Below are positions 6,920-31,941 of a DNA stretch of 64,000 bases, piece by piece. A model generated the notes under the pieces. It saw only the letters and a program-made list of their open reading frames with translations, had not been told where the DNA came from and ran no database searches. The stretch spans positions 1,537 to 65,536 of the forward strand of contig JAGLEW010000050.1 of NCBI GenBank assembly GCA_023144875.1. Reading direction: 5' to 3'. Numbering within the stretch: the first letter of the stretch is position 1; each line of letters opens with the position of its first letter. Source of the DNA: Methylococcales bacterium. GTDB lineage: Bacteria > Pseudomonadota > Gammaproteobacteria > Methylococcales > Methylomonadaceae. Position numbers and translations under genes: made by a program.

Positions 6920-7497
6920 TGATGACACAAATTATTTTAGCATCAGCCTCTCCAAGACGTTCTGAACTTTTAAACCAACTGGGAATAGGGCATCAAATAA
7001 AAGCGGTTGCTATTAATGAAACCCCTTTTTTAGGTGAATTACCCCTAAATTATGTGCAACGAATGGCGGCTGAAAAATCAGCGGCATGCGCTCAATTACA
7101 CTCTACATCATTCCCTATTTTAGCGGCAGATACGGCGGTTATTTTAAACAATAAAATCATGGGAAAACCTGAAAATGAAGCCCATGCCGCGCAAATGTTG
7201 AGGCAATTGTCAGGGAAAACACATGAGGTTTATAGTGCGATTTCTTTACGTGGAAAACAGCACTGGCAACGTGTGAGTATCACAAAAGTGATGTTTCGTG
7301 TGATTACTGAGTGTGAAATAAAAGCCTATTGGAAAACAACAGAGCCTGCGGATAAAGCGGGTGGCTATGCCATTCAAGGTATCGGCAGTATTTTTATTCA
7401 AACTATTACGGGTAGTTTTTCTGGGGTGATGGGATTGCCCTTATTTGAAACTGCCGAAATTTTAACCGAACAAGGACTTGATATTATCCATGAGTGA
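6919..7497 (+). CDS. maf: Maf/YhdE-family nucleoside triphosphate pyrophosphatase
   Basis: ILASASPRRSELL and DKAGGYAIQG motifs. Sits upstream of rng as in E. coli. The start could be the second ATG at 6922. Confidence 0.9.
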   Translation: MMTQIILASASPRRSELLNQLGIGHQIKAVAINETPFLGELPLNYVQRMAAEKSAACAQLHSTSFPILAADTAVILNNKIMGKPENEAHAAQMLRQLSGKTHEVYSAISLRGKQHWQRVSITKVMFRVITECEIKAYWKTTEPADKAGGYAIQGIGSIFIQTITGSFSGVMGLPLFETAEILTEQGLDIIHE

Positions 7498-9000: not shown

Positions 9001-12000
9001 GTGATAGCTCGGTTTATACGCTACTTTTTTTTTATCGGTCTTATTATTATTGCGGTTATTGTGACCGCGCTACGGATTTTTATTTTAACCATAGATCTTC
9101 ATAAAAATAGTTTAGAGCGTGTTCTTTCTGGGTTTATTGATACCACCGTCACTATCAAAACCGTTTCAGCAAAAATGTATCGGTTTTCTCCTGAAATTAT
9201 TCTACAAAATATTACCCTTTTTAATAGCACAAACCCGAAAGAAAATATTACCCTGAAAGAATTACGTATTAGAATTAATTTGTTTGAGGTTTTATTGCAC
9301 GATCAAATGATGCAATCGCTGCGTATTTCGTTGGTTGGGGCAAAACTTTCGGTTATTCGGCAAACCGATGGACGATTTTCGTTAGTCGGTTTAAAAGCAG
9401 GCGGTGGTGAGGGGCAGCCTTTATGGTTATTACAAGGTCAAAACTATCAGCTGATTGACAGCGAAATTAGCTGGCTTAATAAAAAAAGACACGGTAAAAC
9501 CTTAACCTTTAAAAACGTCAATGTGGTGATTAAAAATGATCAACGCCATAATCGACATCAAGCTTTTTTTTTAAGTCACCTGCCATCGGAATATGGTAAA
9601 AAATTACGCATAGCTATTGATATTAAAGGCGATGTTTTTCAGCCTAATAGCATACATGGTCAAGTCTTTGTTGAAGGTGAAGATATACAGTTTGCTAAAT
9701 TACTGACAGGGCAATTACCTTTTGAGTTAAAACTGAGCCAAGGCAGTGGGACATTTAAAGCGTGGGGGCAGATTAAAAACTCTGAATTAAAAGGTTTAAG
9801 CGGTCATATTCACGCAAAAGATTTAAGTTTACGCCGACAAAATAATAAAAAATTACATTTTAAATCACTTAAAGGACGGTTTAACTGGGCAACGAATGAT
9901 CAAAACTGGGCATTAAAAGTGGCTGATTTATATACGCAGGTTGCTCAAAAAAAGTTAAAAAGATCTGATTTTTTTTTGCATTATCAGCAAAACAAACGCT
10001 CTAAAAAACAAATAAGTGCTGAAATTAAGCAAGTTGATTTACAGTTATTTAGCCAGTTTTATCAATTTTTTAAGCCCTTAGCCGCAGACAGTGGACACAA
10101 TGATAAGGCAGTTTCCGTCACAGGGCTGTTAACAAATGGCCGTATTTTTGCCGATTTAACACAGCAACAGTATGCACTTAAGGCAGATTTTAAATACCTT
10201 GGGATAAAGGGGCTTGAGCAGATACCACAACTTTCCAATTTATCTGGCTCTATTCAAGGCACGGAGGCGCATGGTTATTTAACGATCAATAGTCAAAATA
10301 TAGCGTTTAAAACTCAAAGCTTCTTTCGGGCACCGCTTGAAATTTCTCAATTAAAAGGGCGTTTTCAATGGCGTCAATCAGCGCATCAATGGTTTTTAAC
10401 GACTGAAAAATTACGACTAAAAACCCCTTATTTTACAAGTACTCATACAATGAGACTGCAAATTTTTAAAAAAGAGAGACCGACCTCTATTGATTTGCAA
10501 ACTCATTTTAGAAATATAAAATCGGTGCAAGCGCTGAAACGTTATTATCCTGCGGGTATTATGGATAAAGAGGTACTAACTTGGCTTGATAATGCGTTTG
10601 TAACAGGTGAAGTAACCGCTGGACACTTGCAACTTTCAGGTAATTTAGCTGATTTTCCTTTTGATAAAAAAGACGGTGTTTTTAGCGTGAATTTTCATGT
10701 AAAGGATCTTGAATTAGCCTATGATGAGTTTTGGCCAAATTTTAAATCCATTCAAGCTGAGGTGGCTTTTTCAAAAGATAAGGTAGAAATTGCGGTCAAT
10801 CACGGGCAATCGGGTGATATAAAGGTTAAAAATGTACAAGTTAACATCACCTCTTTATCGGAAGCGGCTTTATTATCGCTCTCAGGTCAGGTGGAAAGTG
10901 AGGTGATGGCGGGGTTGAAATGGCTTAAAAGTACTCCGCTGAGCTTGCCTATCGATACGGTTTTAACCCAATTAACGGTTAACGGGCGTACAGAAGTTGA
11001 TTTAAATTTAACGATTCCTTTAAGCAATGAAGGGCATGAAACGGTAAAAGGCAAAGTCAAACTAGATCAAGCCAGTCTTTATATTAAACCCCTTGATTTA
11101 TCGGTTAGTGAGATTAAAGGGCAGGTTTTTTTTGATGAGAAAGGGTTTCATGGTCATAAATTACAAGCGAAAGCCTTTGATTCGCCTATTACGGCTCAAC
11201 TGAAAAAAAATTCAGCGGTTTTTAAAGTGGGTGTTAACGGAAAAATGGCCGTACAGCAATTGCGTACTTTGGTTGATTCTGCTTGGTTAGACTTAGCTTA
11301 TGGGCAAACGACTTATCAACTTAACCTTCAAATTCCAGTTGATGAGCAAAAAGAGACACAGGTTGAAATTCAGTCCAATTTGCAAGGGATCACATTAAAA
11401 TTGCCTATAGGGTTACAAAAAAAAATAGGCGAGAAAAAACCATTAACGATTGCATTTCCTATTAATGATCAACCATTATTACCGATTCGGTTATCGTACA
11501 ATAAAACCCTTAAAGCACGGGTGAAATTTGATAAACAACAGCAAAAACTGCATTCAGCCGCGATAAGCTGGGGAACGGGGGCAGTAAATTTTTTAACTAA
11601 GCCAGAAATTTATGTGCAGATTAATCAGCCACGTTTATCACCGCTCGCATGGATGGGCTTAATGGATCATCAAAAACCAGACATCAAAGACCAGATTACC
11701 TCGTCTCTACCTTTACGAATTGATATTGAAACCCCACAATTATGTATAAAGGATAAAAATTTAGGCGCGGTTAGTTTACAGATTAATCAGCGCAATAATA
11801 ATCTAAAAGGGTCTTTAAAAAGCACGATACTCAGTGGAAAATTTGAAGGCAATAAGGATGAATATAACTTAAATTTAGAGTTTATGGATGTTTCTAAATT
11901 AACGGAGTTAACCTTCCCTGTTATAAAAAAAACAAAGGCTTCCTTAAAAAAATTACCGCTTATTCAGGTTTATAGTAAAAAATTAATTTGGCGTGAGGTT

Positions 12001-12804
12001 AACTTAGGGCGATTAAATATTAGCAGTCAGCGTGAAGGTCATGATGTGTATTTTGATACTATTAGTTTGTCGGGTAATGACTATACCTTATTTGCTGCAG
12101 GTCATTGGCGTAACACTCTATTAGGTTCACAAACACAATTAGAAGGGCGTTTTAGCGCACAAACTTTTGGAAAATTATTAAATAAATTGCAGGTAACCAA
12201 GGATTTAAAAGAAACTAAGGCACTTATTAACTTAGATTTAAACTGGCAAAAACCACCGTATGACTTTTCTTTTAGCGAACTTAATGGCAAAGTGGAGGTT
12301 TTATTGGAACAAGGACGTATTTCCAGTATTGAACCAGGGGTTGGGCGAATGCTGGGTGTATTGGCGATGGAACAATGGATTAAACGTTTACAACTGGATT
12401 TTAGAGATATTTATGAGAAAGGTTTACGCTTTAATCACATAAAAGGTGATTATTATTTACAGGCAGGGCTTGCCCATACGGACGGGTTAATCATTGATGC
12501 CATTCCTGCTAAAATAATTCTTAAAGGCGATATTAATCTTGGAAAACAATGGCTTGATAAAAGTATTTCAATCATCCCTAAAAGTTCTGAGGCATTGCCA
12601 ATTGCAGGAAAAATTATGGGCGTAATTGCGACGACCATTGCCCAAACGGTTACGGGCGAATATGAAGAAGGCTTTTATCTTAGAACAAAATACCAAGTAC
12701 AAGGCTCGTGGACGGATTTAAAAATGACATCATTACGACATCAAGATGGTTTTTTACATCAAGTATGGCGTGGGTTGACCGATTTTTCATGGGTCGTAAA
12801 TTAA
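9001..12804 (+). CDS. yhdP: YhdP-like AsmA-family envelope protein (DUF3971/AsmA2 type)
   Basis: 1267 aa (E. coli YhdP is 1266). Single N-terminal TM helix, long beta-rich body, and the conserved position directly after rng. GTG start. Confidence 0.8.
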   Translation: MIARFIRYFFFIGLIIIAVIVTALRIFILTIDLHKNSLERVLSGFIDTTVTIKTVSAKMYRFSPEIILQNITLFNSTNPKENITLKELRIRINLFEVLLHDQMMQSLRISLVGAKLSVIRQTDGRFSLVGLKAGGGEGQPLWLLQGQNYQLIDSEISWLNKKRHGKTLTFKNVNVVIKNDQRHNRHQAFFLSHLPSEYGKKLRIAIDIKGDVFQPNSIHGQVFVEGEDIQFAKLLTGQLPFELKLSQGSGTFKAWGQIKNSELKGLSGHIHAKDLSLRRQNNKKLHFKSLKGRFNWATNDQNWALKVADLYTQVAQKKLKRSDFFLHYQQNKRSKKQISAEIKQVDLQLFSQFYQFFKPLAADSGHNDKAVSVTGLLTNGRIFADLTQQQYALKADFKYLGIKGLEQIPQLSNLSGSIQGTEAHGYLTINSQNIAFKTQSFFRAPLEISQLKGRFQWRQSAHQWFLTTEKLRLKTPYFTSTHTMRLQIFKKERPTSIDLQTHFRNIKSVQALKRYYPAGIMDKEVLTWLDNAFVTGEVTAGHLQLSGNLADFPFDKKDGVFSVNFHVKDLELAYDEFWPNFKSIQAEVAFSKDKVEIAVNHGQSGDIKVKNVQVNITSLSEAALLSLSGQVESEVMAGLKWLKSTPLSLPIDTVLTQLTVNGRTEVDLNLTIPLSNEGHETVKGKVKLDQASLYIKPLDLSVSEIKGQVFFDEKGFHGHKLQAKAFDSPITAQLKKNSAVFKVGVNGKMAVQQLRTLVDSAWLDLAYGQTTYQLNLQIPVDEQKETQVEIQSNLQGITLKLPIGLQKKIGEKKPLTIAFPINDQPLLPIRLSYNKTLKARVKFDKQQQKLHSAAISWGTGAVNFLTKPEIYVQINQPRLSPLAWMGLMDHQKPDIKDQITSSLPLRIDIETPQLCIKDKNLGAVSLQINQRNNNLKGSLKSTILSGKFEGNKDEYNLNLEFMDVSKLTELTFPVIKKTKASLKKLPLIQVYSKKLIWREVNLGRLNISSQREGHDVYFDTISLSGNDYTLFAAGHWRNTLLGSQTQLEGRFSAQTFGKLLNKLQVTKDLKETKALINLDLNWQKPPYDFSFSELNGKVEVLLEQGRISSIEPGVGRMLGVLAMEQWIKRLQLDFRDIYEKGLRFNHIKGDYYLQAGLAHTDGLIIDAIPAKIILKGDINLGKQWLDKSISIIPKSSEALPIAGKIMGVIATTIAQTVTGEYEEGFYLRTKYQVQGSWTDLKMTSLRHQDGFLHQVWRGLTDFSWVVN

Positions 12805-22920: not shown

Positions 22921-24543
22921 ATGTCTGACTCTAATACTTTTGATGTTCTTATTATAGGAACAGGTGCGGCAGGCTTGACGCTTGCACTGAAACTTGCCGA
23001 TCATGCGCGTGTCGGGGTGTTATCTAAATTTCACTTAACCTCAGGAAGCACTTTTTTTGCTCAAGGTGGGATTTCTGCGGTACTGGATAAAACCGATTCG
23101 TTTGATTCTCATGTTAAAGACACGCTTAATGCGGGGGCGGGTTTGTGTGATGAGGATATTGTTCGTTTAACGGTATCCCAAGGTAAACAAAGCATTGATT
23201 GGTTGCGAGAACAAGGGGTTGATTTTACCAAAGAAATATCAGGGCAACTGCATTTAAATCGTGAAGGGGGGCATTCTCATCGGCGCATTGTTCATGCCAC
23301 TGATGCCACAGGAAAAGCGATGTCTCTCGCGTTAATTAAGGGTGCTAAGGAACATGCGAATATAAAAACACTTGAAAATCATAATGTCATTGATTTAATT
23401 ACGGCGGATAAGCTAGATTCTACCTTAGATAAGAGGGTGGTTGGGGCTTATGTTTTGGATGCTAAAAACCAGCAAGTCAAACCAATGGCCGCACGTGTTG
23501 TGGTGTTAGCAACTGGGGGGGCGAGCAAGGTGTATTTTTATTCAACCAACCCTCATATTTCAACAGGGGATGGCATTGCCTTAGCATGGCGGGCAGGGTG
23601 TCATATTGGTAATATGGAATTTATGCAATTTCACCCAACTTGTTTATACCACCCGAAAGCGCATTCATTTTTAATTAGTGAAGCGGTGCGAGGTGAAGGT
23701 GCGTATTTAGTGGATGCGAATGGAATACGATTTATGTCTCGCTATGATGAACGTGCTGAATTAGCGCCGCGTGATATTGTGGCGAGAGCCATTGATAATG
23801 AAATGAAAATGCACGGGGTTGAATGTGTTTATTTGGATATTAGTCATAAACCTGCGAAGTTTATCAAACAACATTTTCCAACGATTTATGAACAGTGCTT
23901 AAAACTGGATATTGATATTACGTGTCAGCCTATTCCTGTCGTACCTGCGGCGCATTATACTTGTGGAGGGGTTATGAGCGATGATTATGCACGTACCAAT
24001 ATTCCGCAATTATATGCCATCGGGGAAGTCGCTTGTACGGGGCTTCATGGGGCAAACCGAATGGCGAGTAATTCTCTGTTAGAATGTTTGGTGTTTGCGG
24101 ATCGTGCCTCAATTGATATTTTAAAGACTTTGCCTTATTTACGACATCTTAATTTGGATATTCCCACATGGGATGAATCACAGGTCACCGATTCCGATGA
24201 AGAGGTGGTTATTTCGCATAACTGGGATGAGTTACGACGTTTTATGTGGGATTATGTGGGAATTGTGCGCACCGATAAACGCTTACACAGAGCTTTGCGC
24301 CGCATTGAATTGCTCAAGGATGAAATTGATGAATATTATTCACACTTTAAAGTCAGTAGTGATTTACTGGAGCTGCGAAATTTAGTGATTGTGGCTGAAT
24401 TGATTGTACGGTGTTCACAACAGCGTAAAGAAAGTCGAGGATTGCATTATACGCAGGATTATCTTGAAAAATTTGAAGATTCAGCCGCAAAAAATAGCAT
24501 TTTAATTCCTATAACGACTAAGACGGGTCAGGGAGTGTCTTAA
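22921..24543 (+). CDS. nadB: L-aspartate oxidase
   Basis: 540 aa (same as E. coli). FAD-binding [12 protein letters not shown], and FMQFHPT and [15 protein letters not shown] motifs. Confidence 0.95.
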
Positions 24544-25402
24544 GGTTCGTTAAGGCTTGTTGATTCCAATGTTGAATACCCCATGTTAATATTTCATCCA
24601 CAGATGCTTTTTTCAAGTCAGAAGGGGGCTGTTGTTTTAACAGTGATAAAATTTGAAAAAGTATTTTCTCAGGCTGTTGATGTTCGATCGCTTTAGCATG
24701 AGTTTGTTTACTTAATTTTTGCCCTGTTTCATTAATAATAATGGGAAGATGGCTATAAGTTGGTGTTGAAAAATTTAAAAGATGTTGTAAATACAGTTGC
24801 TTAGGGGTTGAGTCTAAAAGGTCAATGCCTCTTATAATATGACTAATCTGTTGGTATTGATCATCAACCACCACCGCCAGTTGATACGCAACAATATTAT
24901 CTTTGCGCTTGATAATAAAATCCCCATAATCAGTCGCGATATTATAAATAATATGACCTTGTAGTGGGTCTTGAAAGTTGATGGATTGGGCGTAGGTTTT
25001 AAGTCTAAGTGCGGTTTTTTTCTGAAGGTCAGGCGGGTTATTTCGACAAAATTGTGGATAAACCGCGTGATTTTTTAACTGTTTACGGTTGCAAAGGCAG
25101 GGGTAGGTTTGTTGTTTTTGCGTAAGTTCCTCAAGGGCAGCGTGGTAAAGCGCGTGTTGCTGGCTTTGGTAAATAACGGTTTCATCCCAATGTAAACCAA
25201 ATACCTCAAGGGTTTTTAGAATATGATCCGTGGCACCGACACGATTACGCGGTGTGTCTAAATCATCTATTCTAAGGAGCCATTGCCCTTGGTGAGCACG
25301 GGCATCTAAAAAACTAGCAACCGCGGTATATAAAGAGCCTAAGTGTAGGCGACCTGTAGGTGAGGGCGCAAAACGCCCTCGATAAGGTTGAGAGGGGATA
25401 AT
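24518..25402 (-). CDS. gluQ: Glutamyl-Q tRNA(Asp) synthetase (GluQRS/YadB); no canonical start codon, ATT proposed
   Basis: My translation of the minus strand gives an uninterrupted 294-codon frame: [24 protein letters not shown]...[10 protein letters not shown]...YPQFCRNN...[21 protein letters not shown]...[10 protein letters not shown]. It aligns with E. coli YadB from residue ~6 to the end. The ORF track lists only the C-terminal 118 aa (24518-24874) because the first ATG/GTG/TTG in frame is that internal GTG. An in-frame TGA lies at 25406-25408. Confidence 0.8.
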
Positions 25403-25959: not shown

Positions 25960-28119
25960 TTATGAATGTTTACGTTTTTTATCGGCAATGAGGCTGGCTT
26001 GTGGATAATCAATTTTTCCTGTGGCTAATACGGGCAATTCACGAATAATAAAGATTGTTTTTGGAAAATGAATCGCCGACAATCCATCGCTATTTTTTTT
26101 CAACACTTGGATACTGGCTTGTGGTTGCGTGGTTAATAATAAAATCTGTTCGCCTTTTTTACTGTCTGGCACACTAAGCGCGGCATGTTGCGCCTTAGGC
26201 CATGTTTTTAGCGCTAATTCCTCAACCATCATGAGTGAAACCATTTCACCACCGATTTTAGCAAAACGCTTACTACGGCCTTTAATTAAAAGATAACCTT
26301 CGCTATCAACTTCAACAATATCCCCCGTGTCATACCAGCCTTCACCATAAATAGAACAAGGAGGGACTAATTCCCCAGGGTTTTTCGCTAATAAATAACC
26401 CATCATAATATTAGCCCCCGAAACATGAAGCTTTCCTCCGTTTTCAATGCCTTTAACCGTTTCTAACTTATAATTCATGGCGGGCAGAAAGCGTCCGACA
26501 GTGCCAACTTTACAATCAATGGGGGTATTGACTGAAATAACAGGGGCGGTTTCAGTGGCGCCATAGCCTTCTAAAATACGAATTCCGAATTTTTCGATCC
26601 ATTCATCACGGGTGGTGTTTTGTAGTTTTTCAGCGCCTGCAACCACATAACGCATACTATGAAAATCATAGGGGTGGGCTTTTTTAGCATATGCGGCTAA
26701 AAAGGTATTCGTACCAAACATAATCGTGGCATTTTGTTCATAGGCCATTTCAGGTACGATGCTATAGTGTAATGGGCTTGGATAATAAAACGTTTTGATG
26801 CCATTCATTAACGGTAAAATTGCCCCCGCCGTAAAGCCAAAGGAATGAAATAACGGTAAAAAATTAAGCACGGTGTCTTGGGCATTAAAACTAATGCGTG
26901 ACTTTATTTGGTGAATATTCGCTAAAATATTACGATGTGATAACACCACGCCTTTTGGCGTACCTTCTGAACCTGAGGTAAATAATACAACGGCGGCTTT
27001 ATTGGAATCATGATTTTTACTAGGGTACCAAAGCGTCGCGGTTTTGGATTTTAATACGGCACTGAGTTTATCAATCGTAGTAATTTTTTCGACTAAATCT
27101 TCCATATATAATAGGATTAAGAATTTACTTAAAGCGGCGGCTTCTTCTTCAAGCTTGCCTAATTCTATGAAACGTCGAGAGGTTAAAACGGTTTTGATTT
27201 GCGCGGTTTGACATGCTGAGACCATCCCTGTTGCGCCCATTGTATAATTAAGCATTGCAGGCACACGAGCGCTCACTTGCAGCGCAAAAATGGTTAATAA
27301 TGTTTTTTGTGAGTTTGGTAAGAAAACGCCAATATATTCGCCTTGTTGCGTGTGTGTGGTTAAAGTATCCGAGAGCGCAATGGATTGGGTGATTAAATCG
27401 TTATACGATAATGGAATACGATCTAAATCTTCGGAAATTTTATGATTACCTCCGTGTATGGTTCGCGCTTCGAGGACTGATGAAAATAATGTTTGTTGAT
27501 AATGGCTGGTGGTAAACATCATATTATTCATTAAATCGGCTAACGCACGACCACTTAATTGGCGGCGTGATTTTCCACGTAAGCGATCATCACAATGAAT
27601 TTTAGTTGGCGGTAAAATGTGAATGTGAATTTTAGGAAAAAAACGCAGTCGTACGATACGGCTTAATTTTGAAAAATGGGTAAATTCACCGCCTGAAATT
27701 CGAATAGGTAAGACGGTCGCCCCTGATTTATCGGCGACCATGCCTGTACCATCGTAAACTTTCATCATTGAGCCTGTGACTGTAATGCGGCCTTCTGGAA
27801 AAATAACGGTTTTAGTGCTGGTTTTTAAATGTTGAATTAAATTCTTTAACGACAATGGGTGGGTGGGATCCATTGGGAACACATTGGATAACCATAAAAA
27901 GGGCTTAAGCCACCATAATTGAGAAATTTGAGTATTAATGGCAAAGGTAATTTTATCGGGTAAAAAGACACCCAATAATAAGGGATCTAAAAAAGAACTG
28001 TGATTGGCGACAATTAAAACTCGATCCCCTGCCTGATGATAATTTTCAAGTCCATGAACTTCAACACGATAAATAACCCGTAAAAGGGCGGTTAATATTT
28101 TTTTTACAAGCGAATACAT
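25960..28119 (-). CDS. aas: Bifunctional 2-acylglycerophosphoethanolamine acyltransferase / acyl-ACP synthetase (Aas-like)
   Basis: 719 aa (E. coli Aas is 719). N-terminal PlsC-type HX4D (ANHSSFLDP). C-terminal AMP-binding motifs (FTSGSEGTPKGV, EGYGATETAPV, WYDTGDIV, GRSKRFAKIGGE). Confidence 0.85.
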   Translation of the reverse strand: MYSLVKKILTALLRVIYRVEVHGLENYHQAGDRVLIVANHSSFLDPLLLGVFLPDKITFAINTQISQLWWLKPFLWLSNVFPMDPTHPLSLKNLIQHLKTSTKTVIFPEGRITVTGSMMKVYDGTGMVADKSGATVLPIRISGGEFTHFSKLSRIVRLRFFPKIHIHILPPTKIHCDDRLRGKSRRQLSGRALADLMNNMMFTTSHYQQTLFSSVLEARTIHGGNHKISEDLDRIPLSYNDLITQSIALSDTLTTHTQQGEYIGVFLPNSQKTLLTIFALQVSARVPAMLNYTMGATGMVSACQTAQIKTVLTSRRFIELGKLEEEAAALSKFLILLYMEDLVEKITTIDKLSAVLKSKTATLWYPSKNHDSNKAAVVLFTSGSEGTPKGVVLSHRNILANIHQIKSRISFNAQDTVLNFLPLFHSFGFTAGAILPLMNGIKTFYYPSPLHYSIVPEMAYEQNATIMFGTNTFLAAYAKKAHPYDFHSMRYVVAGAEKLQNTTRDEWIEKFGIRILEGYGATETAPVISVNTPIDCKVGTVGRFLPAMNYKLETVKGIENGGKLHVSGANIMMGYLLAKNPGELVPPCSIYGEGWYDTGDIVEVDSEGYLLIKGRSKRFAKIGGEMVSLMMVEELALKTWPKAQHAALSVPDSKKGEQILLLTTQPQASIQVLKKNSDGLSAIHFPKTIFIIRELPVLATGKIDYPQASLIADKKRKHS

Positions 28120-28284
28120 CGCCTATCTCCTTAAAGTTTAATAAAAAGGACAGCTTTTTTGGTGACTTTAATTATAAGAGATAAAAACGGCTTCAATAAA
28201 AATTAAGCAACTCATAGGAGGTTTTTTAACAACTTTGATTTTACACGCTACTATAAGACAATCTTAAAAGAGTGATTTTTTAAG

Positions 28285-30486
28285 ATGACTAACATCAATA
28301 AAAGAGAGAAAACAATGGGAAATACTAAGGATTCAGCTATCGCAGGCGACCAACAACTCAAAAAATTACGCACTGCTCTCGCCGTTTCACAAGGGACACG
28401 ATTATTACAAATTTTACTTCAAAAAGCCTCGGCAACGGTCTCTCATAATCAAACCAAACGGGTGAGTTATTTAATTGGCTTATTTTCTGAAATTCACCGT
28501 GAAATATTTCATCATTGGCAATATCAAGCCATCGCATCTCATCGCCCTGGAACAATGCCTGATGCTAAAAAGCGCCAAGCCTTTCGTCAAGCCATTGAAA
28601 AATTAGTCTTAGATGATAACCGACATCAAAAAACTGCTATCTTTGATAATAATGGGTTCGTGATTCGTTCTAAAAATATTGCTAAACGTTTAGCTAAATT
28701 TTATTTTAATATGCGTTCAATTCGACCTTTTGATTATGGTAATCGGATTACCTTAGATTTTTTTATGACGGTATTAGGAAAGTTACCTGCTTTCAATGCG
28801 GTTTATGGGCAAGGGATTGATTTTAGGCGATTGAGTCAACGGGATTCGGTGGCGTTACATGAGTCAAAAGACGAATTAACCCCCGTGATTGTCGCTTTTG
28901 AACATGCCTTGCAACCTAAGCGAAATAAAAACTTGCTTAATAAAGCCAATGGTTATGGAAAATGGCCTGAAAATAAAAAATATATTGCGGGTTTACCTTT
29001 TTTATCGCATAAAACCACTGAAGGGATTGAGTGTTTAGTCGCTATTAATGGGGGCTTAGTCCCTTTTGCTTTGATTAAAAAAGATTTAGATACAGCAGGA
29101 AAACATCTTGCCGACTATCCTTTGTGTGAGACCAAGAATATTATTGGTTATTTACCGAATACTGAAGATTTGCGTGATCCTAATCGGCAAGAAATAGATG
29201 GGGTTTTAATTGGTGAACAGGGTGAAGTGCCCTTATTTTGTTTGGATATTAATATCTTAACGGGCTTAAGTTCGGTTGGGCAAGCAGAACTCAATGAACT
29301 CTTAAAAAAGCGTGCAGGGAATAATGTCACCTTATTAACACTGGCGAATAATAAGCGGTTAAAAAATAAATTACTGCGCGCGTCAAAAAATGAACCTCGC
29401 TTACAAAGAACGGTTGAAATTGCCTGTGAGCGGATTGATAAAATGGCGTTTAAGTTAGAAAAGGCCAAGCAGGCTGTTTTTGAAGGTAAAACACCTGATG
29501 ATGAGCCTAAGTTATTTGTTTCGATGGGGGGCGCGGGTTCTGGAAAAACGGCTGTTGAAGAAATGGCACACGCGCAATGTGGTGAAAATTTTGTAATTGC
29601 GTCGTTGGATGAATTTCGTAAACGAAGTGACCTTTATAGCGTGTTAACCGCGGCAAATCATCACAGTGATGATTATGTTTATGTCGAACCTTTTGCTAAT
29701 TTTTTGCGGGATATGGTCGCAAAACACGCAAAAGACCAGAAGATTAATTTATTGTACGATGGTACAGGGATTCCTTTTATTCCACGTTATTCAACCATTA
29801 TTGAAGCCTTTAAAAAAGCAGGCTTTAAATCACAAGTGATTGCGGTTGATGCGTTTATTGTTAAACCGAAAGGACGTGAAAAAGAATTAATCCGAGAAGG
29901 TATTATTAGCAGTGTGAAATCGCGTTATGAACAAACAGGAAGGGCTTTACCGTGGGTAATTACCGTCTATAAGCATTTACGAGCGCCGCGTTCTTTTTTA
30001 TATGCAATTGAAGAAAGTGCCTTAGGAAAAATTTCACTCTTTGCCAATGATGGTGCAAAAGATCAGCATTATTTAGTGGCTGAAAGTTTTGATGTAGAAT
30101 TTGAAGAGGTGGAAATTTTACAAAAAGAACAGCTCAATAGTAACCTGTGTACGTATTTAAAACATCAAATTATCAACGATGAGCACTCTATTTTAAGAAA
30201 TTTAGCCTACGGTGATCAGGTAAAAACTGAGCAATTAATGGCACGAAATCCAAGTTTTGTTGAAAAAAATGTTGCTTATCAAGCATACAGTAATGAAAAT
30301 GGCTCGCGTGTTTTGTGTATTTATAATGCCCGCAGAATGGTGGATTTTGTTGAAAAAAGACAATTGAACCCGAATGCGTCTGGCGAAGAAGGTTTGCGTT
30401 ATAAAATTGAAGCATTAGCATTTCATGTAGACCCTAAAAATAAAGAACCGTGGATGATTCGACTGCAAGGATCGAGTCTGGAATAA
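28285..30486 (+). CDS. Large multidomain protein: N-terminal region with a possible degenerate Fic/Doc-like motif plus a zeta-toxin-family P-loop kinase domain
   Basis: Residues ~410-560 align with pSM19035 zeta toxin: FVSMGGAGSGKTAV vs LLGGQPGSGKTSL; NFVIASLDEFRKR vs NVIVIDNDTFKQQ; INLLYDGTGIPF...KKAGFKSQVIAVDAFIVKP vs YNLVIEGTGR...QAKGYETKMYVMAVPKI; KSRYEQTGR vs IERYE. N-terminal residues ~155-170 read SIRPFDYGNRITLDFF, loosely like the Fic core HPFx(D/E)GNGRxxR but lacking the His. The start may be the second ATG at 28315. Confidence 0.6.
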   Translation: MTNINKREKTMGNTKDSAIAGDQQLKKLRTALAVSQGTRLLQILLQKASATVSHNQTKRVSYLIGLFSEIHREIFHHWQYQAIASHRPGTMPDAKKRQAFRQAIEKLVLDDNRHQKTAIFDNNGFVIRSKNIAKRLAKFYFNMRSIRPFDYGNRITLDFFMTVLGKLPAFNAVYGQGIDFRRLSQRDSVALHESKDELTPVIVAFEHALQPKRNKNLLNKANGYGKWPENKKYIAGLPFLSHKTTEGIECLVAINGGLVPFALIKKDLDTAGKHLADYPLCETKNIIGYLPNTEDLRDPNRQEIDGVLIGEQGEVPLFCLDINILTGLSSVGQAELNELLKKRAGNNVTLLTLANNKRLKNKLLRASKNEPRLQRTVEIACERIDKMAFKLEKAKQAVFEGKTPDDEPKLFVSMGGAGSGKTAVEEMAHAQCGENFVIASLDEFRKRSDLYSVLTAANHHSDDYVYVEPFANFLRDMVAKHAKDQKINLLYDGTGIPFIPRYSTIIEAFKKAGFKSQVIAVDAFIVKPKGREKELIREGIISSVKSRYEQTGRALPWVITVYKHLRAPRSFLYAIEESALGKISLFANDGAKDQHYLVAESFDVEFEEVEILQKEQLNSNLCTYLKHQIINDEHSILRNLAYGDQVKTEQLMARNPSFVEKNVAYQAYSNENGSRVLCIYNARRMVDFVEKRQLNPNASGEEGLRYKIEALAFHVDPKNKEPWMIRLQGSSLE

Positions 30487-30533
30487 AGCCTTGGTGAAAA
30501 CAGACATAATTATAGCGACAGGAATTTAGAAAT

Positions 30534-31001
30534 ATGCGCGATTCTCCAAAAGAAATAGACAGTCCTTTGTTAGAACTTTCAGACGAGGGGGGGGTAATCG
30601 ATTTAAGCTATGATGATTTTAGCATCGACCCCACCATAAATATCAATTCAAATAATCGAAAAACCATTCGCTATATTCGAAATGATATTCTGGCATCGGT
30701 GCATATTTCAAATATTATTGGGTATTATTCGGCAAAAAAACCGCCTCATTTGGAAGTGAAATTATTAGATATTAGCAGCAAAGGTGCGTTAATTTCATGC
30801 CCTAAACGATTACGAATGCGTAAAAAAATTAAACTAGTGCTTGTTTTTAAAACGAATAAAGTATTTGAGATTAGTGCTAGGGTGGTTCGTGAAGAAACGT
30901 ATGATCCACAAATTTATGGCATTAAGTTTGATAATATGGATCATAGCTTAGGGGACTATTTATTAGAAAGTCAGACCAATCTGATTTTACAAGAGCTTTA
31001 A
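30534..31001 (+). CDS. PilZ-domain (c-di-GMP binding) protein
   Basis: Both halves of the PilZ signature are present with normal spacing: RxxxR (NRKTIRYIR) and DxSxxG (LLDISSKGALI). 47 nt downstream of the zeta-like kinase gene. Confidence 0.8.
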   Translation: MRDSPKEIDSPLLELSDEGGVIDLSYDDFSIDPTININSNNRKTIRYIRNDILASVHISNIIGYYSAKKPPHLEVKLLDISSKGALISCPKRLRMRKKIKLVLVFKTNKVFEISARVVREETYDPQIYGIKFDNMDHSLGDYLLESQTNLILQEL

Positions 31002-31008
31002 GCGGGGT

Positions 31009-31941
31009 TTATTTTTTTTTCGGGGCATAATGCGAATGAGTACGTTTTGTTTGTTGAGCGATCAAAGGCTTTTTGATTTTAGACATTGGTTTTTTATGTT
31101 GCCATAAGGCTCTAGGGGTTTTTTCAGCAGGTAAACCCACAAACTCCATTAATATAGTACGTTCTTTATCATTCAGTTCGTAGTAAGCATGTGATTTAAT
31201 GTTTTCAGGTAAGAGAGCGGGTCCGTAGCGCACACGCATTAAGCGGCTGACAATAAGCGCTTGAGATTCCCACAAGCGCCGTACCAATCGGTTACGGCCT
31301 TCTTTCACCACGACGTGATACCATTTATTAGCCCCTTCACCCGCAAAAAAACGAACATCATCAAAATGCGCCATGCCATCGTCTAACTCTACCCCTGATT
31401 TTAAACGTTCTAAGGTCGTATCATCGACTTTTCCTAAAATTCTAACCGCATATTCCCGCTCAATTTCCGTAGAAGGGTGCATCAAACGATTTGCTAACTC
31501 CCCATTATTGGTGACAAGAATAAGCCCCGAGGTATTAATATCCAATCGTCCTACCGCAATCCAACGACCTACGCTTAATTTTGGTAAACGGGTAAAAATA
31601 ACAGGTCGCCCTTCGGGATCTCGGCGGGTAACCACTTCTCCTGTTGCTTTGTGATACGCTAATACTTGTGTGGGTTGTTGGCTAAATTTTTCCCAATGAA
31701 CAATACGCCCTTTAATGTGTAAAATATCCCCTGTTTTTAATGATTGCCCCAGCTCAACCAATACGCCATTAATGGTAAGCAGTCCTTCTTTAATCCAGCG
31801 TTCAATTTCTCGCCGAGAGCCTAAACCACCGCGTGCTAAAATCTTTTGTATGCGCTCACCAGAGGGAATTATGTTGATAGGATCGGTTTTAGGTTCCGAT
31901 TGTTGAGGTTTGGTTGGTTTTTTTTGAGGTATTTTAGCCAC
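31009..31941 (-). CDS. rluB: 23S rRNA pseudouridine synthase RluB
   Basis: S4 domain (RIQKILARGGLGSRREIERWIKEG), catalytic GRLDINTSGLILVTNNGE, and Lys-rich tails typical of RluB. Confidence 0.85.
   Translation of the reverse strand: MAKIPQKKPTKPQQSEPKTDPINIIPSGERIQKILARGGLGSRREIERWIKEGLLTINGVLVELGQSLKTGDILHIKGRIVHWEKFSQQPTQVLAYHKATGEVVTRRDPEGRPVIFTRLPKLSVGRWIAVGRLDINTSGLILVTNNGELANRLMHPSTEIEREYAVRILGKVDDTTLERLKSGVELDDGMAHFDDVRFFAGEGANKWYHVVVKEGRNRLVRRLWESQALIVSRLMRVRYGPALLPENIKSHAYYELNDKERTILMEFVGLPAEKTPRALWQHKKPMSKIKKPLIAQQTKRTHSHYAPKKK

Follow-up and report, generated by a model that had tools for sequence, protein, structure and literature searches.

A stretch of 64 kilobases (GC content 0.38) from contig JAGLEW010000050.1 of a Methylococcales bacterium, referred to below as the window, carries a gene at positions 28285-30486 (+ strand) whose product joins a decayed Fic-like domain to a kinase domain of the zeta/PezT type. 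The open reading frame (ORF) encodes 733 amino acids when counted from its first ATG, and residues are numbered here on that count. As judged from sequence profiles and a structure model, the chain is built of a pseudo-Fic domain, a beta-rich domain, a helical linker, a zeta/PezT-type kinase and a C-terminal extension, in that order. The preferred explanation, to which we would give a probability of about one half, is that the protein is a domesticated, cytoplasmic, single-chain enzyme that is vertically inherited and combines a zeta-type kinase with a pseudo-Fic module, rather than forming part of a toxin-antitoxin or toxin-PilZ module. The kinase-Fic protein is an uncharacterised combination of known domain families.

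Residues 399-568 (nucleotides 29479-29988, + strand) match the Pfam family Zeta_toxin (PF06414) with an E value of 4.9e-17 and 62.5 bits, against a cut-off of 22.3, and the same family is matched by 59 of 64 distant relatives. In sequence searches of the Protein Data Bank (PDB), zeta (1gvn) and PezT (2p5t) were the sole kinase structures matched. Foldseek also placed zeta and PezT at the top (1gvn, E 1.9e-8) when queried with a full-length AlphaFold2 model built from 55 homologues (predicted local distance difference test, pLDDT, 76; predicted template modelling score, pTM, 0.74). A first-pass annotation of the window, made from the letters alone, had called a zeta-family kinase from a series of conserved blocks, and all of these are present. 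They include the Walker A motif MGGAGSGKT (residues 414-422, nucleotides 29524-29550), the catalytic-Asp motif SLDEFR (residues 440-445, 29602-29619), YDGTGIPF (residues 491-498, 29755-29778) and RYEQTGR with the lid residues R547 and R553 (residues 547-553, 29923-29943), all on the + strand.

Aligned to zeta with HMMER, K421 corresponds to K46, D442 to D67 (the catalytic base), D492 to E116 and T494 to T118. Across 73 diverse family members, G415, K421, D442, R445, D463, D492 and R547 are invariant. D67 of zeta is the catalytic Asp that deprotonates the substrate, and contacts with uridine diphosphate N-acetylglucosamine (UDP-GlcNAc, or UNAG) have also been described (PMC3062530). Since the catalytic residues align with those of zeta and stay invariant across the 73 relatives, the machinery for phosphotransfer dependent on adenosine triphosphate (ATP) appears to be complete, with every catalytic element kept. 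The P-loop fold and the motif order are those of the UDP-GlcNAc 3'-kinases zeta and PezT, with which the protein shares the Walker A sequence GxxGxGK[ST], the catalytic Asp, the [D/E]GT strand and the lid Arg residues. In contrast to these proteins of 250-290 amino acids, however, the present one has ~725, has no epsilon/PezA gene beside it, and shows a housekeeping-like inheritance.

The substrate site also differs. In zeta, the GTxR motif (G117-T121) binds UDP-GlcNAc (PMC6362051); here the site reads G493-T494-G495-I496-P497, with R120, the Arg that binds the UDP phosphates, replaced by I496 and T121 by Pro. The uracil-binding T128 has no counterpart in the alignment. I496 is invariant across the Methylococcales clade, and the consensus of the family is GTGIPY. 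The protein thus has the above-threshold score, the Walker A Lys and the catalytic Asp of the Zeta_toxin family, but not the GTxR motif of the UNAG kinases. Because the GTxR Arg is replaced by Ile, UDP-GlcNAc is probably not the substrate. A further departure from zeta and PezT is the motif HHxDDY, which follows the catalytic Asp and precedes the DGT strand, is invariant and specific to the family, and reads HHSDDY in the window protein (29659-29676, + strand). HHSDDY, IDFRRL (28816-28833) and KRQLNPNAS (30355-30381) are family-specific motifs without a counterpart in zeta or Fic proteins, and may mark the substrate site or contacts between domains.

We suggest that the kinase would be active and would transfer the gamma-phosphate of ATP to a hydroxyl acceptor, with D442 as the base, K421/T422 and D492 holding Mg-ATP, and R547/R553 forming the lid. 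Its substrate would not be UDP-GlcNAc bound in the manner of zeta and PezT; the acceptor would most likely be a different metabolite that contains a nucleotide, or else a protein that the N-terminal module presents. Zeta-type kinases do accept nucleotide substrates besides UNAG: AvrRxo1 is a secreted zeta-like 3'-kinase of nicotinamide adenine dinucleotide (NAD; PMC10532202), and ng_zeta1 is a UDP-sugar 4'-kinase (PMC6362051). Structures of AvrRxo1 appeared in none of the sequence searches and not among the best 50 Foldseek matches, and ng_zeta1 (6eph) was a weak fold match (E 5.8e-3; template modelling, TM, score 0.21). Literature searches on Fic-zeta fusions, on zeta toxins in methanotrophs and on this family returned nothing specific.

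The N-terminal ~215 residues are a true homologue of class-I Fic domains, of the FicT/VbhT/Bep kind, with the predicted Fido fold at residues ~20-215 (28342-28929, + strand). When the PDB was searched with the full family profile, the best match overall was the FIC domain of a Bartonella Bep protein (4lu4, E 4.8e-9), followed by 5eu0 (8.6e-8), zeta, BepC (7e-7), PezT, 4py3 (Bep8) and EcFicT (5jff, 3.6e-6), with further matches to 4nps, BepA and VbhT (1.3e-5). A profile of residues 20-232 alone found 4lu4 (E 2.4e-6) and the Escherichia coli FicT. The full-length model matched Fic proteins of Enterococcus faecalis and Mycoplasma in Foldseek (probability 1.0, TM score 0.55-0.57), so that structure prediction, too, points to a Fido fold. 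A model of residues 1-405 alone was poor (pLDDT 52), and its Foldseek matches were nearly all FIC proteins at non-significant scores. The Pfam Fic family (PF02661) is matched by 16 of the 64 distant family members (best E 6.3e-5). The window protein by itself falls below that family, and single-sequence searches with residues 1-400 against Pfam (to E 10) and NCBIfam gave no match, antitoxin families included.

The canonical motif HPFx[D/E]GNGRxxR here reads RPFDYGNRITLD, within the decayed signature RPFDYGNRITLDFF at residues 147-160 (28723-28764, + strand). The profile hidden Markov model (HMM) alignment of HPFRKGNGRTQR with RPFDYGNRITLD is ungapped, as is that with HPFRKGNGRTQRMF of 4lu4, and the one-residue gap that the first-pass annotation had seen in the motif disappears. 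R147 occupies the position of the catalytic His, R154 that of the second Gly, I155 that of the first Arg and D158 that of the second Arg. The earlier description of a degenerate Fic-like region with Arg in place of the catalytic His is upheld by the family profile and the fold, and the motif is conserved at residues 147-160. Homology and fold are those of a Fic domain, but the catalytic signature HxFx[D/E]GNGRxxR is missing. Family-wide, the His position is taken by K, E, N, D, R or Q, with H rare; P, F, G, N, T and F are retained, and the remnants of the motif differ between subclades. Beyond the motif, IHxxLFxD and PFxxGN are among the regions common to the family and class-I Fic proteins. 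With catalytic residues replaced and structural residues persisting throughout the family, the pattern is that of a pseudo-enzyme whose ancestor was a canonical class-I Fic domain. The possibility that the Arg of an N-terminal 'NRG' and motif position 158 form the inhibitory Glu-Arg pair of Fic proteins with the charges swapped was also considered, and was dropped when no covariation was found.

The class-I Fic proteins EcFicT (5jff), VbhT (3zcb) and Bep (4lu4), together with 2vza and 4wgj, are the best profile relatives of residues ~20-215. They differ from the window protein in the His, the second Gly and both Arg of the motif (here RPFDYGNRITLD) and in the fusion to a kinase; moreover, neither a FicA/VbhA-type antitoxin gene nor a BID domain, as known from FicT, VbhT and Bep, is present here. 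The dead Fic domain would bind a target or ligand or have a regulatory role, and would not act as a transferase of adenosine monophosphate. A purely binding role has a precedent in the non-canonical FIC domain of BepC, which binds GEF-H1 independently of the motif and whose effect is not abolished when the motif is mutated (PMC8714903). The likeness is that of a non-canonical FIC domain proposed to act in binding; BepC, however, departs from the canonical motif at one residue and is secreted, whereas the decay here is far wider and the protein apparently cytoplasmic.

Between the Fic-like and kinase domains (28930-29478, + strand), the AlphaFold2 secondary structure consists of a beta-rich domain (residues ~230-330) and a helical linker (~330-398), and pLDDT in the middle region is mostly 80-90. 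G256 is invariant family-wide, and L258, D305 and T326-G327-L328 are near-invariant. The HMM alignment to 4nps_A given below hints that the beta-rich domain may correspond to the oligonucleotide/oligosaccharide-binding (OB) fold that follows FIC in VbhT and Bep proteins, an idea that fold searches neither confirm nor refute. The C-terminal extension (residues 569-733; 29989-30483, + strand) was delimited from the AlphaFold2 model and Foldseek. One portion rounds off the zeta fold, with which Foldseek aligns the model over ~280 columns, and the rest is a small alpha/beta unit that holds the conserved segment KRQLNPNAS, and a tail of low confidence. K691, N695 and A698 are near-invariant across the family. 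Single-sequence searches with residues 566-733 gave no match in Pfam or NCBIfam, and the middle region likewise had none in Pfam. One HMM alignment to 4nps_A, a Bartonella Bep protein of 566 amino acids with the order FIC-OB-BID, spans profile positions 14-369. In two metagenomic proteins of 1968-1969 amino acids (P0211 and P0227), a middle-plus-kinase module (query ~216-578) stands near the N-terminus, and no other recognisable Pfam domain was found outside it.

A search of 5.8 billion proteins returned hundreds of homologues of 715-755 amino acids at 62-94% identity, and all those with a name come from Methylococcales, Methylococcaceae or Methylobacter metagenome-assembled genomes (MAGs), the hosts being mainly free-living methanotrophs. 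The names that these homologues carry in their sources are 'fido (protein-threonine AMPylation protein)' or 'zeta toxin family protein'. Among 1.84 billion cluster representatives, scanned exhaustively, only 176 relatives turned up, of which ~60 are full-length at 26-47% identity. A profile built from distant members led back to the Methylococcales clade. The domain architecture is fixed throughout this small family, the large Methylococcales clade included. Measured against the closest orthologue, the ratio of nonsynonymous to synonymous substitution rates (dN/dS) is 0.056 in the Fic-like domain, 0.062 in the kinase and 0.095 in the middle region. Strong purifying selection acts on every domain, and the Fic-like domain is as constrained as the kinase.

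The divergence of the gene follows that of its neighbour aas. The orthologues of two close relatives are 78.7% (L001) and 75.6% (L007) identical to the window protein, against 77.8% and 74.3% for aas. Adjacency to aas is retained only in the closest relatives (L001, L002, L004 and L007), and distant members lie near parC, mdh, mutY and thiC, or near sdhCDAB. The GC content of the gene matches that of the window, and that of the related loci ranges from 36 to 63%. Neither the kinase nor the PilZ-domain protein encoded downstream of it had any match in PADLOC-DB at E <=0.01, PHROGs gave a weak match to the kinase and nothing else, and no hallmarks of mobile elements or defence systems were seen at the kinase gene. 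The gene is chromosomal and stands among housekeeping genes, and from these features it appears to be vertically inherited. Some of the related loci carry genes of other kinds a few kilobases away: in L030 these are a HicB-like antitoxin gene and a ParE toxin gene (2130-2525 and 6926-7231), and in L007 a gene for a BrnT toxin and a fragment of a transposase gene (11103-12555). These toxin-antitoxin or mobile genes are neither adjacent to the kinase gene nor conserved.

The first-pass annotation had paired the kinase with the downstream gene (30534-31001, + strand), which encodes a PilZ-domain protein of 155 amino acids. Its description as a canonical PilZ protein holds: it matches Pfam PilZ (PF07238) with E 2e-8 and 34.9 bits, against a cut-off of 22.5, and has both motifs for binding cyclic di-guanosine monophosphate (c-di-GMP), RxxxR as RKTIR (residues 42-46, 30657-30671) and DxSxxG as DISSKG (residues 79-84, 30768-30785), both on the + strand. 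If the two genes formed a module, this c-di-GMP receptor would gate or neutralise the kinase. They lie on the same strand, 47 nucleotides apart, and no terminator-like hairpin was found in the gap between them, so co-transcription is possible. The linkage was surveyed with tblastn, BLASTP, a motif scan and Pfam searches of flanking ORFs at 24 distinct related loci, which were drawn from contigs of genomes and metagenomes and from look-ups of exact proteins and extend from 91% down to ~30% identity. A PilZ gene adjoins the kinase gene at only one of them, L006, which belongs to the 90%-identical sister lineage (L002/L006); the other 23, at 26-79% identity, lack it there, including relatives of 76-79% identity that keep the adjacency to aas. 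Because the adjacency is confined to this single locus, the PilZ gene is very probably an incidental neighbour and not a partner of the kinase, being merely the next gene in one lineage. Stand-alone PilZ genes are, moreover, common in general. The proposed toxin-regulator pair, which was to stand or fall with conserved linkage in related genomes, is the least credible of the explanations considered and can be set aside. Clustering of flanking ORFs across the 24 loci revealed no conserved neighbour, only synteny groups at the level of lineages, and no conserved antitoxin gene of the kind that defines a type II epsilon/zeta or PezAT module. A 57-amino-acid ORF upstream of the L030 homologue is specific to that locus.

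The main rival is a toxin inhibited in cis, as in EzeT of E. coli, a toxin and antitoxin in one polypeptide with an N-terminal cis-inhibitory domain (PMC10532202, PMC4826407). In such a protein, the N-terminal region of ~400 residues would act as an intramolecular antitoxin until its hold was released by stress, proteolysis or phage. The window protein shares with EzeT the single chain, the position of the kinase C-terminal to a non-kinase region and the lack of a separate antitoxin gene; the zeta active site is intact, and both fused domains derive from toxin families (FicT/VbhT and zeta). However, EzeT is a UNAG kinase with a short epsilon-like N-terminal domain, whereas here the N-terminal region comprises a Fic fold and a beta domain, does not resemble the helical bundle of epsilon/PezA and has no Pfam antitoxin match. 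It is also five times longer than inhibition needs, and is constrained like the kinase. The housekeeping context and the aas-like divergence are atypical of toxin-antitoxin or defence genes, PADLOC is without a match, and the GTxR Arg needed for poisoning through UNAG is missing. On these grounds we regard a cis-inhibited toxin as unlikely. We are equally doubtful of a more specific version of the domesticated enzyme, in which a Fic domain of FicT/VbhT type and a zeta-type kinase, both derived from toxins, would have been fused and domesticated in Methylococcales and scattered other bacteria, with the dead Fic domain recognising a protein or nucleotide ligand and the kinase using a substrate new to its family. 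Rather improbable is a bifunctional enzyme, in which the Fic-like domain would have acquired new chemistry, and this domain and the kinase would act one after the other on a single substrate. AvrB and Doc have gained new chemistry within the Fido superfamily. The very strong selection on the Fic-like domain (dN/dS 0.056) would fit such an enzyme, as would the conserved polar patches near the old active site, FDNNG (residues 120-124) and IDFRR (178-182), in which, of 80 sequences, 76 have D179 and 61 have R181/R182. Non-canonical Fido domains can catalyse other reactions or stay toxic (PMC8714903, PMC5651007; for AvrB, see the preprint cited below). Nevertheless, the position of the catalytic His is unconserved in the family (K/E/N/D/R/Q/H), the window protein has lost the GNG anion hole as well as the two Arg residues that bind phosphate, and the motif remnant varies by subclade, a variation easier to reconcile with a structural role than with a new active site. 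A secreted effector, or an inter-bacterial toxin delivered by a secretion system, had been the other functional suggestion of the first-pass annotation. It might be entertained on the grounds that, by structure and by sequence, the N-terminal domain is closest to VbhT and to the FIC domains of Bartonella type IV secretion system effectors, and that AvrRxo1 is a secreted zeta-like kinase (PMC10532202). Yet the searches detected neither a signal peptide nor a delivery domain such as BID, and the hosts are mainly free-living methanotrophs. The chromosomal setting is housekeeping-like, with variable neighbours, no antitoxin-like gene among them and no match in PADLOC; the gene is stable, slow-evolving and under purifying selection, unlike typical effectors. 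We consider secretion very unlikely. Of the earlier annotation, then, the three domain calls (zeta kinase, degenerate Fic and PilZ) stand and the two functional proposals fall.

Several points weigh against a domesticated enzyme all the same. What is said of its substrate, its target and the role of its Fic-like domain is inference. In some distant members of the family the P-loop ends in GKG rather than GK[S/T], so that not all members may be active kinases and some subclades may be pseudo-kinases too. The relatives with GKG, in which the Mg2+-coordinating Ser/Thr is lost, include P0145, P0146, P0155, P0159, P0166, P0173 and P0184. Because characterised zeta-type kinases are toxic when unrestrained, some restraint of the kinase may be needed, possibly in cis, and here the domesticated enzyme overlaps with the EzeT-like alternative. 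Multi-domain zeta homologues have been described as 'predicted but so far uncharacterized' (PMC4826407). Finally, a degenerate Fido domain can still be an enzyme, as AvrB is reported to be a glycosyltransferase in a preprint (bioRxiv 10.64898/2026.08.26.747443).

The kinase gene is divergent from aas (25960-28119, - strand), and the PilZ gene converges on rluB (31009-31941, - strand); both identities were confirmed by NCBIfam, which also identified nadB, gluQRS, dksA and cobQ among the neighbours in the window. The intergenic distances are 165 nucleotides between aas and the kinase gene, 47 between the kinase and PilZ genes, and 7 between the PilZ and rluB stops. All of these agree with the earlier annotation, as do the lack of a hairpin in the kinase-PilZ gap and that of a small upstream gene. 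Homologues start at the equivalent of M11, a near-invariant first residue, and the ATG at 28315 is preceded by a purine-rich stretch that is better than the one upstream of the first ATG at 28285. Given the homologous starts and this purine-rich stretch, translation probably begins at M11 (nucleotide 28315), yielding a protein of 723 amino acids. The region between aas and the kinase gene (28120-28284) has sigma-70-like hexamer pairs on both strands, and the promoter-like sites at 28226-28254 (+) and 28267-28238 (-) are consensus matches only. No ORF of at least 20 amino acids was found on the + strand upstream of the kinase gene in this region, and the search for an antitoxin ORF that overlaps the gene was equally negative. 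Elsewhere in the window, the gluQRS frame (24518-25402, - strand) is open for ~295 codons without an ATG, GTG or TTG near its 5' end; it begins just past the region of the dksA stop, and the ORF finder lists its final 118 codons only. Translation may start there at a non-canonical codon (ATT or ATC), or the frame may reflect a sequencing or assembly artefact. Neither tRNA genes nor Rfam families at the gathering threshold were found in the whole window (1-64000).

Nearly all that is known of zeta-type kinases and Fic proteins concerns toxins or effectors. The family described here fuses both in a fixed architecture in which Fic catalysis has been discarded and the fold kept under strong selection, and it shows a housekeeping-like inheritance in the bacteria chiefly responsible for aerobic methane oxidation in lakes and sediments. 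The idea of a toxin with a PilZ regulator can be abandoned, and its PilZ component is an ordinary one. The labels 'zeta toxin family protein' and 'fido AMPylation protein' attached to hundreds of homologues are probably misleading. If the kinase proves active on a new substrate, zeta biochemistry would extend past UNAG, UDP-sugars and NAD, and the N-terminal domain would provide a clear bacterial example of a pseudo-Fic module. If the protein is indeed a domesticated fusion, it would show zeta-type kinases in a new role, physiological rather than toxic, and with a new class of substrate.

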